Assembly (NCBI GenBank): GCA_030038175.1
Contig: JASHPN010000208.1
Coordinates: 1-53,447 of the forward strand
DNA length: 53,447 nucleotides
DNA from: Verrucomicrobiia bacterium
GTDB lineage: Bacteria > Verrucomicrobiota > Verrucomicrobiia > Limisphaerales > UBA11358
Direction: 5' to 3'
Shown: piece by piece, positions 36,067 to 40,094 of the stretch
How positions within the stretch are numbered: the stretch's first letter is position 1
Layout of the letters: each line of letters opens with the position of its first letter
Made by a program: the position numbers and the translations under genes
The notes under the pieces: generated by a model
Told to the model about the DNA's origin: nothing
Database searches by the model: none
Seen by the model: the letters and a program-made list of their open reading frames with translations, nothing else

Positions 36067-36156
36067 TGTTTCTTCGCTCTCTTTGCTTTTTGCTTTTGAT
36101 GTCAGAAGGAAATCGGTAATTTTCTGGCAGGTAAAGCGAAAAGATTTCTATGCAGA

Positions 36157-36396
36157 GGGCGCATCTCAGTTTTTGTGAGGCAGAATATGCCGCCCCTCCG
36201 GGGCTTGAGATTCCTATTGATTTTACTACAAAGATGCCACGCCTACGGCGTTTCCAATCCGCTACCGGACGCCGATACCATGTCGGTTGCTGAACCCCGT
36301 AGGGGTGGTATCTCTGTAGAAAATGACACAAAAACCCGAAAACCCCGTAGGGGTGACATCGTCGGTTGCGGTATTAACAAAAACTGAGATGCGCCC
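36157..36396. mobile_element. 240-bp MITE
   Basis: Perfect 20-bp TIR GGGCGCATCTCAGTTTTTGT / ACAAAAACTGAGATGCGCCC; 9-bp direct repeat CTATGCAGA at 36148-36156 and 36397-36405; interior made of REP hairpins. Confidence 0.88.
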
Positions 36397-36522
36397 CTAT
36401 GCAGATACCTCGGCATTATCTCCTTGCCAAACTCACAGAAACCCTTGAAATGGGGCTGTTTCTTGAATGGAGCGGTTGCTTTGGACGCCCACCGCGCATT
36501 CCGTGGGGTAGAAAGAGAATCC

Positions 36523-36720
36523 GTGTCTAAAAAGAAAAAGCAAAAGAAGAAACAGGATGTAAAGATGCCGAACCTGAGCGGCGGTGAATCCGAGGATGCT
36601 ATTATGGCATTGCTGCAAACGCCAGCGGGAAAAGAGCAACTCAAGAAAGCCGGGAAACTCATTGAAGAGTCGCTGGGTAAAGCCATTGCCGAAGCCAAAG
36701 CACGTTTCCAAAAACCATGA
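36523..36720 (+). CDS. Small Lys-rich hypothetical protein (IS-associated cassette)
   Basis: GTG start after AGAAAGAG; paralog of 37610..37759 (PNLSG..ED.I.A...TP). Confidence 0.6.
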   Translation: MSKKKKQKKKQDVKMPNLSGGESEDAIMALLQTPAGKEQLKKAGKLIEESLGKAIAEAKARFQKP

Positions 36721-36902
36721 GCAAAACGACTGGCAAAGTCGGCAGGCCCGCGCTACCGAAAAAGGAAAAGCGTTGGAAGTTCATTTCTACGCGCATCTCG
36801 CGGGATGAATACCGCGAGATCTTCAAAACAGCAAAAGAATCGGGCATGACAAAGACGAAGTGGGTAAGAACAAAGCTCGTTGCCGCCGCTCGCCGGGCCT
36901 GA
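36717..36902 (+). CDS. Ribbon-helix-helix (MobC/CopG-like) DNA-binding protein
   Basis: GRPALPK, then RISRDEYREIFKTAKESGMTKTKWVR; ATGA coupling; paralog at 37198..37395. Confidence 0.7.
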   Translation: MSKTTGKVGRPALPKKEKRWKFISTRISRDEYREIFKTAKESGMTKTKWVRTKLVAAARRA

Positions 36903-36942
36903 AAAACGGCGTGATTAGATTCAATTGGCCGCATTTCAGAGT

Positions 36943-37070
36943 CGCGCGAGCGCGCGGCTCGCGAGGCGGGAAATTAGCGCCTGGATATTTGGGGCTTGGT
37001 GACCCAGGGCGGCGCGCTCGCGGACTCGCGCTCTGCCCTGGGCTATAATATTGCACCCTTACAGGGTTTT
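36943..37070. repeat. REP family D (CCCAGGGCGGCGCGCTCGCGGACTCGCGCTCTGCCCTGGG)
   Basis: Related copies at about 39647-39750, 39920-40075, 42770-42895, 44660-44780, 51055-51175. Confidence 0.8.
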
Positions 37071-37197
37071 AAGGAGAGCCTCACCGACTCGGCTGGTCCT
37101 GCTTGACCTTTTTAATTTAGTCCCGCGCTCCTTCGGGATTATGTCTTTCACAGACCCAACTGCGGGCATGGTTTGGAGCTTGATTTTGCATGGTATT

Positions 37198-37395
37198 TTA
37201 AGCGCGACGGGCAGCAGCCAGAAGCTTGGTTCTAATCCATTTGCCGCGCATCATTCCTGATGCTTTGGCTGCTTGGTCTATCTCCCTAAACTCATCCTGT
37301 GAAATGCGAGCGGTCATGAACTTCCATTTCTTTTCCCTTTTTGGAAGCGCGGGGCGTCCAACTTTTCCAGCGGATTCGTTTGTAGTTTTCATCAA
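37198..37395 (-). CDS. Ribbon-helix-helix (MobC/CopG-like) protein, paralog of 36717..36902
   Basis: GKVGRPALPKREKKWKF...RTKLLAAARRA. Confidence 0.7.
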   Translation of the reverse strand: MMKTTNESAGKVGRPALPKREKKWKFMTARISQDEFREIDQAAKASGMMRGKWIRTKLLAAARRA

Positions 37396-37613
37396 GACGG
37401 AAGGCAGCTTTCAGCCTCTATCACGGCTTCATCGATCATTTTCTTGAGATATTCTGCCTGCTCTTTCAACTCGCCGATGGTTCTGCATTCGGTTGAAAGC
37501 AAAATTAAACCACCTTCGTCAGGTTGATAAGTTCCACAGGCAATATAACCCTTTGGGGTGTTGAAAATGTTCTTCGGCTGACCTCCCTTAAATTTAAAAA
37601 ATATGCCTTTCAT
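37392..37613 (-). CDS. Hypothetical protein (73 aa)
   Basis: 4-bp overlaps with both neighbours, suggesting translational coupling. Confidence 0.6.
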   Translation of the reverse strand: MKGIFFKFKGGQPKNIFNTPKGYIACGTYQPDEGGLILLSTECRTIGELKEQAEYLKKMIDEAVIEAESCLPS

Positions 37614-37759
37614 TGTTTCCGCGCTTTCTTTTCCTTTTTTGGCGGTTTAGGCGTTCGGGCAAATGCCCTGATCACATCTTCAAACTTAATGCCGCTCAGA
37701 TTCGGCAGCATCGTTTCCGCCAGTTTCTTTTCCTGTTTCGATTTTTTTGTTTTTGCCAC
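37610..37759 (-). CDS. Small Lys-rich hypothetical protein (49 aa)
   Basis: GTG start after a 33-bp leader nearly identical to that of 36523; IKFEDVIRAFARTPKPPKK. Confidence 0.6.
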   Translation of the reverse strand: MAKTKKSKQEKKLAETMLPNLSGIKFEDVIRAFARTPKPPKKEKKARKQ

Positions 37760-37770
37760 GGATTCTCTTT

Positions 37771-37911
37771 CTACCCCACGGGATGCGCGAGGTTTTGGAT
37801 GTGCGGCCAAAGCAAAGATTCCAGAAGCTCGCGGGCCTTGTTATCGTCTGAATATTCTTGCGCCAGCGTTATCAGGTTTAACTCTTTTTTACCTTCTGTT
37901 GTCGTTTTCAT
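37771..37911 (-). pseudogene. IS1595 transposase N-terminal remnant
   Basis: LNLITLAQEYSDDNKARELLESLLWP matches the IS1595 N-terminus that precedes the Zn-ribbon; similarity ends there; no Zn-ribbon or DDE. Confidence 0.75.
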
Positions 37912-37917
37912 GCAATA

Positions 37918-37961
37918 AAAGTAGCACTTTAATACAAATATGTCAACAATAAATGTGCTAC
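37918..37961 (-). promoter_or_regulatory. sigma70 promoter of the transposase remnant with overlapping inverted repeat
   Basis: TTGACA-N17-TACTTT ending 6 nt before ATG; GTAGCAC (37921) / GTGCTAC (37955) inverted pair. Confidence 0.6.
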
Positions 37962-38013
37962 ATTTATACAATATTTTACGCCGGATTTCATTGCAATTTG
38001 CATTGTTGGTATT

Positions 38014-39165
38014 TCATTTTCCTGCACGCGCCGCCATAATTTGATACCCGACAAAAATCGTTAGTCTCTCATCAATCGTATCATATAAGCCTATGTATGA
38101 ATTTGTAGAAACCGTCTTATCACTGCCGGGCACTACGAGGTGGGTGTTAAATAGTCCGTTTGCATCTGGCCGCTCCTCAAAAAATCCATTCGCACATGAA
38201 ATCCTCAATGCCCTTTCATTCCAAAAATCAGGCGAAATCACCGAGATTTTAAAATCAACATTGGTTAGCGGTTCAAGCATGATTTCTGCAACATTTGTGT
38301 CTCCGATGCCTATGTCAACAGATTGCGGGACTGACTGATAATAGTTTGACGTTTTTGCGACATGATTGTTTATTTTGCTTCCTTCTTCGTTCAAAATGCG
38401 ATCCAGCGACTCAAGCGTGTATCGGAACGCGGCTAACCCCTTATTCCATTCTTTCTGCACAGCGACTTGTCTTTCCTCGTTTTGCTTATCTTGATTCTGC
38501 TTTTCCTCATTCCCATATTGCATCGCCGCCGATATCGCGTCATTCGTATTGGAAATAAATCCGTCAACCTCAAATTGCTGCGTTTGCGATTGTTGTGCTT
38601 CGTTTGTCGGGGTTATCGGGGCGGTTGGTGAGGGGATGATGGTTTCCGGCAACAATTGCGGTTTTTTCTCCAATGGGCGTGTGTTCTTTTGGGCTGACGC
38701 CAACAGGTTTAATTTCGCAAGCTTGGCAACTTGATAATTTTGGGCCATTAAAAGATAAATAAAAGCCGTGATGAAAAGGACAATAAGTCCAATCGGAAAC
38801 AAAAGCGTGTATTTGCTTTTTTTGATAAGTATTTGCGCCCCGCCATTCATCGCGGTTATATCGTTTTTATGAATTCGGTGAGGCATGGATATGGCTGCCC
38901 AGATAAACCACACAAGCCACGCAAAAAAAGGGACGGCGATGGTCCAATAAATGATATAATCGCCCCATTCTTGAGTGATCCAATGGGCGAGAAAGGCGGT
39001 GGCAACAGCTCCAGCAAGAATTGCACAGACCGTTCCGACATGCTCAAAAGGTTCGGCAGACTTCTTGAAGCATTCCCCGACAATTCGCCACCAGAATTTA
39101 TGGAGAGGCAAAACCGCAACCTTTTTGCGAGGTCTTTCCGAAGAGCTTTCAGCCATAATCGCCAA
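38014..39165 (-). CDS. Hypothetical membrane protein, IS passenger (383 aa)
   Basis: Three N-terminal TM segments, P/T/Q-rich linker, soluble C-terminal domain; visibly more AT-rich than flanks. Confidence 0.75.
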   Translation of the reverse strand: MAIMAESSSERPRKKVAVLPLHKFWWRIVGECFKKSAEPFEHVGTVCAILAGAVATAFLAHWITQEWGDYIIYWTIAVPFFAWLVWFIWAAISMPHRIHKNDITAMNGGAQILIKKSKYTLLFPIGLIVLFITAFIYLLMAQNYQVAKLAKLNLLASAQKNTRPLEKKPQLLPETIIPSPTAPITPTNEAQQSQTQQFEVDGFISNTNDAISAAMQYGNEEKQNQDKQNEERQVAVQKEWNKGLAAFRYTLESLDRILNEEGSKINNHVAKTSNYYQSVPQSVDIGIGDTNVAEIMLEPLTNVDFKISVISPDFWNERALRISCANGFFEERPDANGLFNTHLVVPGSDKTVSTNSYIGLYDTIDERLTIFVGYQIMAARAGK

Positions 39166-39444
39166 TCATCCGCCAACGCCAAAACCGCGTCCAGCGCAAT
39201 TTTTGTAGCACGTCTATTGGTGTCTTTGAGGGGTTTCAGCCTCCCAAAACCATTGATTTTAAAGGGAATTGGCATGGGTCTGTGAACGGTATAGTCCCGC
39301 GCTCCTTTGTACCCACTATTGGTGACATGCGGGAAATGGGGGGTCTGGTACATTCTTAGCATTGTTGATACGGAAGTGTCGGTGGTTTGTGTGTTACCCC
39401 GCACTGAAAGGTTTGCAGTAGCGCATGAGCGCTTAGTTCTCATT

Positions 39445-39481
39445 GGGAGCCGGAGTAGTGCCCGGCTCCCATTTTTTATTT
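39445..39481 (+). terminator. Rho-independent terminator
   Basis: 9-bp stem GGGAGCCGG/CCGGCTCCC, 8-nt loop, followed by ATTTTTTATTT. Confidence 0.75.
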
Positions 39482-40094
39482 ACCCGGTTGGTTTTGGCCT
39501 CACGCGAAGATGCAAAGGACCAAAAGGGTTTCAAGAAACTTCTGAGAATGGCCACGGGGACACGGAGAAAATTGCGTGAATGGAAGAGGGCATTCTATGA
39601 ACCGGAGGGGGTTTCGAATTTCCCTCACATCAGATTCGCGCTGACGCGCGGCTCCGCAATCAGCGGCAGAATTTTAGGTTGTTTTTACCCAGGGCGGCGC
39701 GCTCGCGGACTCGCGCTCTGCCCTGGGCTATTATATGCCACCCCTACAGGGTTTTCATTCAGAGCCTCGCGGACTCGGCTGAGCATTAGCTCGCCCTCAC
39801 CGGTATCCTCTCCCCCAGGAGAGGATTTCACGCCGTCCGATAGTTGGTAACGACAATGTCTATTTTTGGAGGCCGGGTGAATCGGAGGGGATTATTTGAA
39901 TTGTCCGCAAACAAGATGCGCGCTTCGCGCGTCCCGCAAGGCGGGAAATCAGCGGCAGCTTTTTTAGGATTCGTCACCCGGGGTGGCACTTCCGCCCCCG
40001 CTCGGCTACGGCGCGACGGGCGAAGACTCGCTTACACCGGGCTACTTTCCTGTGCCCCTCCGAGGCACTCAGCTAGCGGACGCGCCGGATGATC

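Follow-up and report, generated by a model that had tools for sequence, protein, structure and literature searches.

The 53,447-nucleotide stretch of DNA analyzed here (hereafter the window) is the forward strand of contig JASHPN010000208.1 from the Verrucomicrobiia bacterium assembly GCA_030038175.1. Positions 37134-39299 of the window hold a 2166-bp element of the IS1595 family that has lost most of its transposase. The element is bounded by imperfect inverted repeats (IRs), is flanked on both sides by the 8-bp target-site duplication (TSD) CGCTCCTT, and is positioned between the remnant of what is inferred to be an older related element and the palindromic box in front of a small-RNA (sRNA) gene. 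The IR near the transposase is termed IRL and the IR near gene B is termed IRR. The features of the locus are as follows.

36411..36435 (+), degenerate left IR (CGGCATTATCTCCTTGCCAAACTCA) of the inferred older occupant
36501..36527 (+), older-occupant copy of a conserved 27-nt motif that follows the transposase stop in full-length relatives
36565..36720 (+), gene A of the older occupant, a small Lys-rich protein (MPNLSG...), in a frame open from 36424
36717..36902 (+), gene B of the older occupant, a ribbon-helix-helix (RHH)-like protein
36923..37101, copy of a dispersed repeat of about 175 bp, between gene B and the tip of the older occupant
37118..37125 (+), terminal 8 nt (TAGTCCCG) of the earlier occupant's end
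37126..37133, first TSD copy (CGCTCCTT)
37134..37158 (+), IRR of the younger element
37198..37395 (-), gene B' (RHH-like)
37392..37613 (-), ORF X (73 aa), variable cargo
37610..37810 (-), gene A', with a likely start at the ATG at 37711 and the conserved motif at 37755-37781 upstream
37771..37911 (-), transposase remnant, 37 homologous residues followed by 9 unrelated residues and a stop
37921..37961, operator-like palindrome GTAGCAC-N27-GTGCTAC upstream of the transposase start
38014..39156 (-), cargo gene for a 380-aa membrane-anchored protein of unknown function
39275..39299 (-), IRL of the younger element
39300..39307, second TSD copy (CGCTCCTT), abutting the box
39308..39326 (+), palindromic box TGTACCCA-CTAT-TGGTGAC
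39346..39354 (+), extended -10-like element (TGGTACATT)
39361..39477 (+), sRNA gene with an invariant seed AGCGCUUAGUUCUCAUUG (39428-39445) and an intrinsic terminator (39445-39477); the 5' end is an estimate

The observation made in the initial annotation, that a non-autonomous IS1595 element carrying four passenger ORFs lies beside a copy of its own end, holds in most of its details. The 16-bp direct repeat TAGTCCCGCGCTCCTT is exact at 37118-37133 and 39292-39307, and these are the only two exact copies in the 5.39-Mb genome, while the chance expectation for an exact 16-mer pair within 3.5 kb is about 0.001. The IRs are 25 nt long, rather than the 24 bp initially described, with 21 of 25 positions complementary, and four further ORFs lie inside the element in addition to the transposase remnant. 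In contrast, the wording "its own end" was not confirmed, as only 8 nt are shared and these are the family-wide tip consensus TA(G/A)TCCCG, which does not identify the same element. A search for autonomous copies with these IRs had been suggested as a check, and none was found in this genome, nor were any other copies of the element or its IRs. A single distant intact IS1595 transposase lies on contig C227 (49% identity to the transposase of G013; related genomes are designated by G and their contigs by C).

The assignment of the element to the IS1595 family rests on its relatives. Window 37801-37884 aligns at 75% identity to residues 12-39 of the full-length 322-aa G013 transposase, which carries DDE_Tnp_IS1595 and Zn_ribbon_IS1595, and the remnant is 57-65% identical to the N-termini of full-length IS1595 transposases. 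Homology ends after ...LLWPH. Relatives with the same IR consensus encode 316-323-aa proteins with DDE_Tnp_IS1595 (PF12762, 118 and 91 bits) and Zn_ribbon_IS1595 domains, as well as a match to the NCBIfam IS1595 model (NF033547, 185.6 bits). The window copy lacks the DDE domain, indicating that it is a deletion derivative of a family member rather than an autonomous member. The remnant stops just before the first Cys pair seen in relatives (WPHGAICPHC in G013) and has no Pfam hit, compared with 37.7 and 39.5 bits for the zinc ribbon of relatives, which leaves the question of an N-terminal zinc ribbon in the window copy undecided. The 8-bp TSD, also seen at 9 further complete relatives, and the IRs are as expected for the family, with IRR and IRL scoring 24 and 23 of 25, respectively, against the consensus CGGGAYTATRTMNTTCRCAAACCCA derived from transposase-carrying relatives.

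The layout of the clade is IRL, variable cargo, transposase, conserved motif, gene A, gene B, IRR. The 27-nt motif follows the transposase stop in G013 and also occurs in G011 and G166, and the older-occupant copy is 90% complementary to 37743-37781. Gene A is 49% identical to its counterpart in the younger element and gene B is 67% identical to B', and homologs of both are present in autonomous relatives, where those of gene A follow the transposase gene. Profile searches of the passenger proteins against Pfam, NCBIfam and PADLOC gave only sub-threshold RHH-like hits for gene B (NikA-like, 25.8 bits for B and 22 bits for B', cut-off 27). ORF X has no family hit and no paralog in the genome. 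The 380-aa cargo protein also has no family hit, but has one homolog (39% identity, 94% coverage) at the same place in a related transposase-less element in a JGI metagenome contig. Palindromes analogous to that at 37921-37961 precede the transposase gene in G014, G115 and the element L168. The window element fits the description of a non-autonomous transporter IS, having functional-looking IRs, a TSD and passenger ORFs but no transposase, although its mobilization in trans is inferred. Independent analogs are found in G115 (1766 bp), G085 (1545 bp) and L168 (1864 bp, perfect IRs, TSD AAAAAAGT, homologous cargo), each with a different deletion junction.

The sRNA gene is single-copy in at least 84 of 163 genomes of this Verrucomicrobiia genus. 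An alignment of 31 loci shows an invariant seed and a terminator stem that differs between loci yet stays complementary. There is no Rfam match, as the only Rfam hits at the locus were weak Acido-Lenti-1 matches on the dispersed repeat (27.7 and 29.8 bits, below the gathering score of 37). The box is conserved in front of the sRNA across the genus, and the pattern TGnTAnnnT holds in nearly all sRNA loci aligned by eye, suggesting an extended -10 element, although no transcription start site data exist. A sigma-54 promoter was considered and rejected because the GG and GC dinucleotides are not conserved, while the extended -10 is.

The position of the element relative to this box is shared with many relatives. 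The pattern RTCCCG-N8-TGTAMCCA gives 35 hits in 32 of the 163 genus genomes, compared with 4 for the reversed control. Of the loci that were retrieved, 21 carry both a 25-nt IR scoring at least 19 of 25 and the full box, such that an IS tip of this clade lies exactly 8 bp from the box in at least 21 genomes. A version of the pattern with 21 specified bases gives 26 loci among 185,579 species, nearly all titled as Verrucomicrobia-type MAGs and a few bearing other titles, with about 1 estimated by chance. Furthermore, identical 8-mers lie at both ends of the element, one abutting the box, in G057 (CCCCAATT), G071 (TTAGGAAT), G077 (TTGTGCTT), G011 (TTACCGCT), G115 (GTTTCGCG), G085 (TTGGGTGT) and the window, confirming that these are bona fide insertions. 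The 8-mers differ between genomes and both orientations occur, in a ratio of about 7 to 3. Of the 30 best transposase loci in the genus, at least 15 are verified at such a box and about 19 are probable, whereas a random site would fall within 3 kb of one given locus about 0.15% of the time.

Identification of an empty site in relatives had been proposed as a test of the initial reading, and such a site is present in a close relative. G019 reads ...aaatttgcattt, TTTGGAAT, tgtaaccag, while G071 reads ...aaatttgcattt, TTAGGAAT, IS, TTAGGAAT, tgtaaccag. The far flank of G115 is likewise collinear with empty sites that end in a response-regulator gene. No empty or single-occupancy allele of the window's own species was found, as searches of JGI metagenome contigs for the empty and the occupied allele gave zero hits and are uninformative. 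An ancestral insertion shared with G015 was rejected because the flanking genes are not syntenic, the TSD pairs differ and empty sites exist, and descent of all box-adjacent IS tips from one ancestral insertion, which would argue against the explanation preferred below, is contradicted by the matching TSD pairs and by the empty site. A search for the other end of the G015 element by its TSD gave only chance hits.

Four sites are stacked, with the same 8-mer repeated three times in G073 and twice each in G152, G070 and the window. In G073 the order is GCCCGTCA, IS-a, GCCCGTCA, IS-b, GCCCGTCA, box, where IS-a and IS-b are two different full ISs placed head-to-head. In G152 and G070:C43 the order is older diverged end, TSD, IS, TSD, box, and the window has the same geometry. 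All of these genomes are MAGs, so some stacks could be mis-assembled; however, G073:C44 is a 167-kb contig, and G166, G160 and G141 are assemblies of few contigs.

Taken together, these results suggest, with high confidence, that this clade does not insert at random but directs strand transfer into the 8 bp that directly abut one edge of a 19-bp palindromic box, TGT(A/C)(A/C)CCA-N4-TGG(T/G)GAC. In this view, the box survives each insertion and the site stays a target. A first element, the remnant at 36411-37125 ending in ...TAGTCCCG, landed at the site, and a second element then used the same 8 bp, duplicated CGCTCCTT again and moved the tip of the first element away from the box. This would place the old tip plus CGCTCCTT on the left and the new tip plus CGCTCCTT on the right, which is the 16-bp direct repeat. 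The position, the target duplications, an empty site, the stacks and independent events in both orientations are shown here, while it is inferred that the box, or a protein bound to it, is what the transposition complex recognizes, that the older occupant is 36411-37125, and that the window element was mobilized in trans. The interpretation offered in the initial annotation, end-targeting or tandem-array formation, is therefore only partly supported: the element does carry cargo and does lie next to the tip of another family member, but neither process is supported as the cause. The common denominator is the chromosomal box of an sRNA gene, and end-adjacency is a by-product of hitting the same 8 bp twice.

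The left IR of the older occupant scores 20 of 25 against the clade consensus, and the subterminal ...ACAGAAACCCTTGAAAT resembles the transposase-proximal (IRL-type) ends of G070:C86 and G015. However, the 8 bp to its left (AGATACCT) do not match CGCTCCTT, which is unexplained, and consequently its two ends do not show the triple TSD seen in G073. Only 8 nt of its right IR survive, as the 17 nt further in no longer match an IR, and the 179-bp copy of the dispersed repeat lies between gene B and the tip. A blastn search of the genome with the two flanks gave 123 alignments across many contigs, most of them to this repeat, a second copy of which lies at 39617-39781. The recognition rule is also not fully captured, because a related subgroup (G145:C41, G001:C268, L168) inserts beside a different palindrome, TTRYCTTGGACAGCC..., and nothing shows what reads the box. 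Alignment of the box with the IR by eye in both registers showed no convincing similarity, arguing against the box as a mimic of the IS end. A T-arm-like stretch in G015 had suggested a tRNA or tmRNA target, but ARAGORN found nothing.

Of the alternative explanations, IS30-like IR targeting, in which the transposase bound to a resident IS end directs a new copy next to that end with a spacer of TSD length and the 8-bp remnant was the attractant, survives best but is unlikely. The flanks of other copies had been named as a place to look for such a bias, and tip-N8-tip junctions do recur in the genus (5 real junctions, reversed-pattern control 0), three of them IRL-N8-IRR. IS30 is documented to insert into hot spots or next to its own IRs (PMC9333248). 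IS-end attraction is not excluded for the few junctions where no sRNA box was seen (G013:C34, G070:C86, G098:C252, G168:C379), most of which run into contig ends; G145:C41 lies next to the different palindrome. In contrast, first-time insertions at the same nucleotide occur with no resident IS in G057, G071, G077, G011 and G115. The G073:C44 junction is IRL-N8-IRL between two different full ISs, whereas IS30 IR targeting gives only IRL-IRR junctions (PMC9333248). Additionally, in every stack at a box the newest element is the box-proximal one and shares its TSD with the box side.

A tandem duplication or IS dimer, produced by unequal exchange or replication slippage between the 8-bp TSDs and followed by deletion of most of the left copy, is very unlikely. 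The exact 16-bp repeat and a 384-bp unit (AGCTGTCA + IR + A-like ORF) repeated in tandem next to a full IS in G013:C34 are consistent with this reading. However, the DNA left of the 8-nt tip is not a copy of the younger element but holds a 71%-identical cassette in the opposite orientation, and the stacked partners in G070, G152 and G073 are clearly different elements. Least likely is that TAGTCCCG was present by chance and that insertions upstream of the sRNA are merely tolerated or useful, for although this 8-mer occurs 107 times in the genome and the position, being outside the box, is probably harmless to sRNA expression, the chance that the 8 nt next to the target equal the tip consensus is about 3e-5, IS-derived genes lie immediately to the left, and tolerance alone cannot give use of the same phosphodiester in more than 20 genomes with different 8-mers because neutral positions abound.

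A more far-reaching possibility, which is tentative, is that this clade has evolved true site-specific integration. In this scenario, the transposase or the conserved accessory proteins A and B may read the 19-bp operator directly, or the transposition complex may be tethered by the transcription factor bound there, most likely the NarL/FixJ-type response regulator encoded next to empty sites. Either way, strand transfer would fall on the 8 bp at the operator's edge, and the lack of target immunity would allow the site to accumulate stacks of elements and cargo. The tethered version would be a bacterial counterpart of the transcription-factor-tethered integration of yeast retroelements.

DDE insertion sequences are usually treated as near-random or as having only short sequence preferences, whereas here a whole clade lands on the same phosphodiester beside a regulatory box in more than twenty species, in either orientation, and again after the site is already occupied. 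This clade offers a simple, natural case for asking how a one-protein DDE transposase achieves positional targeting. It also indicates that an IS end next to an IS end with a shared 8-mer can mean target re-use rather than end attraction or dimer formation. Furthermore, the analysis exposes an undescribed conserved small RNA and its control box in soil Verrucomicrobia, and the hot spot collects variable cargo genes, making it a small, predictable site for acquired genes.

Site-specific insertion sequences are already known, and the closest systems differ from this clade in several respects. IS1595 family members, which include groups with passenger genes (e.g., ISNwi1+/ISPna2+), share the 8-bp TSD, terminal IRs, passenger genes inside the IRs and, in the autonomous relatives, a single transposase with an N-terminal Zn-ribbon and a DDE_Tnp_IS1595 domain, which are defining features of the family (PMC8101967). 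The window copy has lost the catalytic domain, and the clade carries a conserved accessory module (27-nt motif, gene A, RHH-like gene B) plus a variable cargo slot between IRL and the transposase gene. Exact positional targeting beside a palindromic box was not reported for the family in the papers searched. IS30 likewise prefers a nearly palindromic chromosomal sequence and forms IR-IR junctions whose spacer equals the TSD length (PMC9333248). However, IS30 belongs to a different transposase family and inserts within its palindromic hot spot with a 2-bp TSD, while here the 8-bp target lies beside the palindrome. Tn7 recognizes a conserved host sequence through TnsD, which reads glmS, and inserts at attTn7, at a fixed distance outside the functional element, which acts as a safe harbor. 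Tn7 inserts in one orientation, uses a dedicated target selector and shows target immunity against a second copy, whereas here both orientations occur and the site is repeatedly re-used, so there is no immunity; no selector protein is identified, and the analysis did not test for one. Finally, REP-targeting insertion sequences of the ISPpu9/ISPpu10 type home to a specific short palindromic host sequence (PMC1525189, PMC12288879), but these belong to other IS families and target multi-copy REPs, while the target described here is essentially single-copy per genome and belongs to the control region of a gene.

The 16-nt direct repeat TAGTCCCGCGCTCCTT is exact and occurs nowhere else in the 5.39-Mb genome, and the observation made in the initial annotation holds. 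The features of the window that are discussed here are listed below.

37118-37133 and 39292-39307: the two copies of the 16-nt direct repeat
37134-39299: the 2166-bp unit lying between the two copies
39308-39477: the palindromic box and apparent small-RNA gene
36411-37125: the most likely earlier occupant of the site
36501-36527 and 37755-37781: copies of a 27-nt motif
36923-37101 and 39617-39781, also 42757, 44643 and 51043: copies of a dispersed repeat of about 175 bp
37921-37961: a palindrome upstream of the transposase start codon
36148-36406: a MITE

The ends of the 2166-bp unit are 25-nt imperfect inverted repeats (IRs) with 21 of 25 positions matching, and its G+C content is 40-49%, against 56-60% in the flanks. 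The unit carries the following ORFs, in order, on the minus strand.

Minus strand: a 380-383-aa membrane-protein ORF
Minus strand: a 46-codon ORF, whose first 37 residues match the N-termini of IS1595 transposases
Minus strand: a 66-aa Lys-rich ORF (A')
Minus strand: a 73-aa ORF (X)
Minus strand: a 65-aa ribbon-helix-helix (RHH)-like ORF (B'), with a NikA-like score of 22 bits, below the Pfam cut-off

Autonomous copies with the same IRs had been named in the initial annotation as a point to check. The element and its IRs are single-copy in this genome, and the only intact IS1595 transposase present is a distant one on contig C227 (49% identity to the transposase of G013, a genome of the same genus). 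The C227 copy (C227:1-1031) is an intact compact IS1595 element whose IR lies 51 bp upstream of the transposase ATG. Eleven nt after its stop codon the tip of another IS end (CGGGATTAGC...) begins and the contig stops there. The assembly has probably collapsed or broken at further copies. In contrast, relatives in the same GTDB genus (individual genomes are designated G, their contigs C, and retrieved loci L), which is made of uncultured Verrucomicrobiia/Limisphaerales MAGs from soil and peat according to the database records, carry full-length 316-323-aa transposases with DDE_Tnp_IS1595 and Zn_ribbon_IS1595 domains that are also recognized as IS1595 by NCBIfam. The N-termini of these transposases are 57-75% identical to the remnant in the window, and the IRs of these relatives fit one consensus, CGGGAYTATRTMNTTCRCAAACCCA.

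The layout of the clade is evident from complete copies with 8-bp TSDs, such as those in G070:C43 (2982 bp, perfect IRs) and G077:C173 (2396 bp). In these copies, the IRL is followed by a variable cargo slot of 0-1.4 kb, the transposase gene, a conserved 27-nt motif, gene A, gene B, about 65 bp, and the IRR. The window element has this layout, but its transposase is deleted after ...LLWPH, and it is therefore a non-autonomous derivative. Such derivatives arose repeatedly, each with a different deletion junction, as seen in G115 (1766 bp), G085 (1545 bp), and an 1864-bp element in a JGI metagenome contig (L168), which has perfect IRs, a TSD, and a cargo protein 39% identical to that of the window. 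The 27-nt motif, CCGTGGGG(T/C)AGAAAG(A/C)GAATCCGTGGC, lies between the transposase stop and gene A (window 36501-36527 and 37755-37781; L011, the G013:C34 locus, 293-330; L013 6630-6656). It is more conserved (90% between the two window copies) than the coding sequence around it (about 70%), and may be a regulatory site or RNA element of the accessory module. Additionally, a long palindrome lies just upstream of the transposase start codon in each element (window 37921-37961; L012 5075-5125; the G115 and L168 elements), reading GTAGCAC...GTGCTAC in the window and TGTGACAC...GTGTCACA in relatives. This palindrome looks like an operator, perhaps for the RHH-like protein B, and in G014 gene B is divergently transcribed from this region.

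The initial annotation interpreted the arrangement as insertion adjacent to a related IS end, implying end-targeting or tandem-array formation. This interpretation is partly supported, and the surroundings of the element change it. Immediately to the right of the second CGCTCCTT lies TGTACCCACTATTGGTGAC, a 19-bp palindromic box that is followed by an extended -10-like element and a stretch of about 115 nt ending in an intrinsic terminator. This unit (window 39308-39477; also L009, L010, and L031-L056) is single-copy and conserved in at least 84 of 163 genomes of the genus. An alignment of 31 loci shows an invariant 18-nt stretch, AGCGCUUAGUUCUCAUUG, and a terminator stem that differs between loci yet stays complementary. 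A search of Rfam gave no match, and the unit is read as an apparently undescribed small-RNA gene whose box is an activator site. A sigma-54 reading of the promoter was considered and dropped. Shorter paralogues in G110:C88, G100:C98, G085:C2, G062, and G082 share the box, seed, and terminator. In genomes with an unoccupied site, the gene just upstream encodes a response regulator with Response_reg and GerE domains.

The flanks of other copies, which the initial annotation had proposed to examine for a bias toward IS ends, show that in relative after relative an IS tip of this clade lies exactly 8 bp from the box. The pattern RTCCCG-N8-TGTAMCCA gives 35 hits in 32 of 163 genomes, against 4 for the reversed control, and 21 of the fetched loci combine a convincing 25-nt IR with the full box. 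A version with 21 specified bases finds 26 loci among 185,579 species, nearly all of them titled as Verrucomicrobia-type MAGs and a few carrying other titles on contigs that are members of this genus. These are real and separate insertions, as G057, G071, G077, G011:C8, G115, G085, and the window each have the same 8-mer at both ends of the element, the 8-mers differ from genome to genome, both orientations occur, and the elements are of different subtypes. An empty site in relatives had also been named beforehand as a test for the window element; for the insertion in G071, G019 has the exact empty site. While G019 reads ...aaatttgcattt / TTTGGAAT / tgtaaccag, G071 reads ...aaatttgcattt / TTAGGAAT / IS / TTAGGAAT / tgtaaccag. 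The far flank of G115 is collinear with empty sites that end in the response-regulator gene. Pattern scans of metagenomes were empty, and no polymorphic allele of the window's own species was examined. The genes around the sRNA are not syntenic between the window and G015, and a single inherited insertion therefore does not explain the pattern. Of the 30 best transposase loci in the genus, at least 15 are verified at such a box and about 19 are probable, a count that includes shorter paralogous sRNAs sharing the box, the -10 element, the GUUCUCA seed, and the terminator.

The box is untouched by insertion, so the site remains a target. Four sites show the expected product, in which the same 8-mer is repeated. 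G073:C44 reads GCCCGTCA / IS-a / GCCCGTCA / IS-b / GCCCGTCA / box, where the two ISs are different full-length elements lying head-to-head, while G152 and G070:C43 read older diverged end / TSD / IS / TSD / box. The window reads TAGTCCCG / CGCTCCTT / element / CGCTCCTT / box. G166 has a longer series of ends and mini-elements next to its box, without a shared 8-mer.

The earlier occupant in the window is most likely 36411-37125. This stretch contains an IRL-like end (20 of 25 against the consensus), no transposase gene, the 27-nt motif, genes A and B in the opposite orientation and about 70% identical to the inner copies, a 179-bp dispersed repeat in its tail, and the surviving 8-nt tip. However, the left flank of this older occupant reads AGATACCT, not CGCTCCTT, and its two present ends may not be the original pair. 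Recombination within a stack is a possible cause, although this was not tested. The dispersed repeat (about 175 bp; 36923-37101 and 39617-39781, also 42757, 44643, and 51043) gave 123 blastn alignments across many contigs of this genome for the two flank queries, and its core hairpin gives sub-threshold Rfam hits to the Acido-Lenti-1 RNA motif (27.7 and 29.8 bits against a gathering score of 37). The MITE at 36148-36406, with the 9-bp repeat CTATGCAGA at both sides, ends 5 bp from the left IR of the older remnant, such that three different mobile or repeated elements are packed within 1 kb left of the hot spot.

Shown here are the position of insertion, the 8-bp duplication, the independence of orientation, and the absence of target immunity, while it is an inference that the transposition complex is positioned by the box. 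This positioning could occur through direct reading of the box by the Zn-ribbon region of the transposase or by proteins A and B, or through tethering of the complex by the regulator bound at the box. Some tip-N8-tip junctions do not fit, lying where no sRNA box is visible (G013:C34, G070:C86, G098:C252, and G168:C379), although most of these run into contig ends. Attraction to IS ends, as shown by IS30, remains a minor possibility for these box-less cases. The IRL-IRL junction in G073 argues against an IS30-like rule. Simple end mimicry is unlikely, as no resemblance was found between the box and the IR.

The element derives from a member of the IS1595 family, which is defined by an 8-bp TSD and a single transposase with Zn-ribbon and DDE domains (PMC8101967). 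Site preference as such is known for IS30 hot spots, for REP-targeting insertion sequences, and for Tn7 at attTn7. In contrast, positional targeting by an IS1595-family clade, a target beside the control box of a single-copy sRNA gene, and repeated re-use of that target to build stacks all look new, as no report of them was found among the open-access papers searched.

The recognition rule is broader than the one box, as G145:C41 and the subgroup with IR CGGGATTGTATA... sit beside a second palindrome, TTRYCTTGGACAGCC.... In this subgroup (L161, the G145:C41 locus; L168; and L014, the G001:C268 locus, 2644), elements with IR CGGGA(T/C)(T/G)TTATA... are inserted 8 bp from this conserved palindrome, TTRYCTTGGACAGCCTTTGTC..., which is different from the box and may be a second target class for the same IS clade. 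Finally, in L011 (1390-2040) a 384-bp unit (AGCTGTCA + IR + A-like ORF) of unexplained origin is repeated in tandem directly next to a full-length IS, and G166 (L057 4575-5100) has a similar mini-element, likewise unexplained, carrying an A-like ORF.
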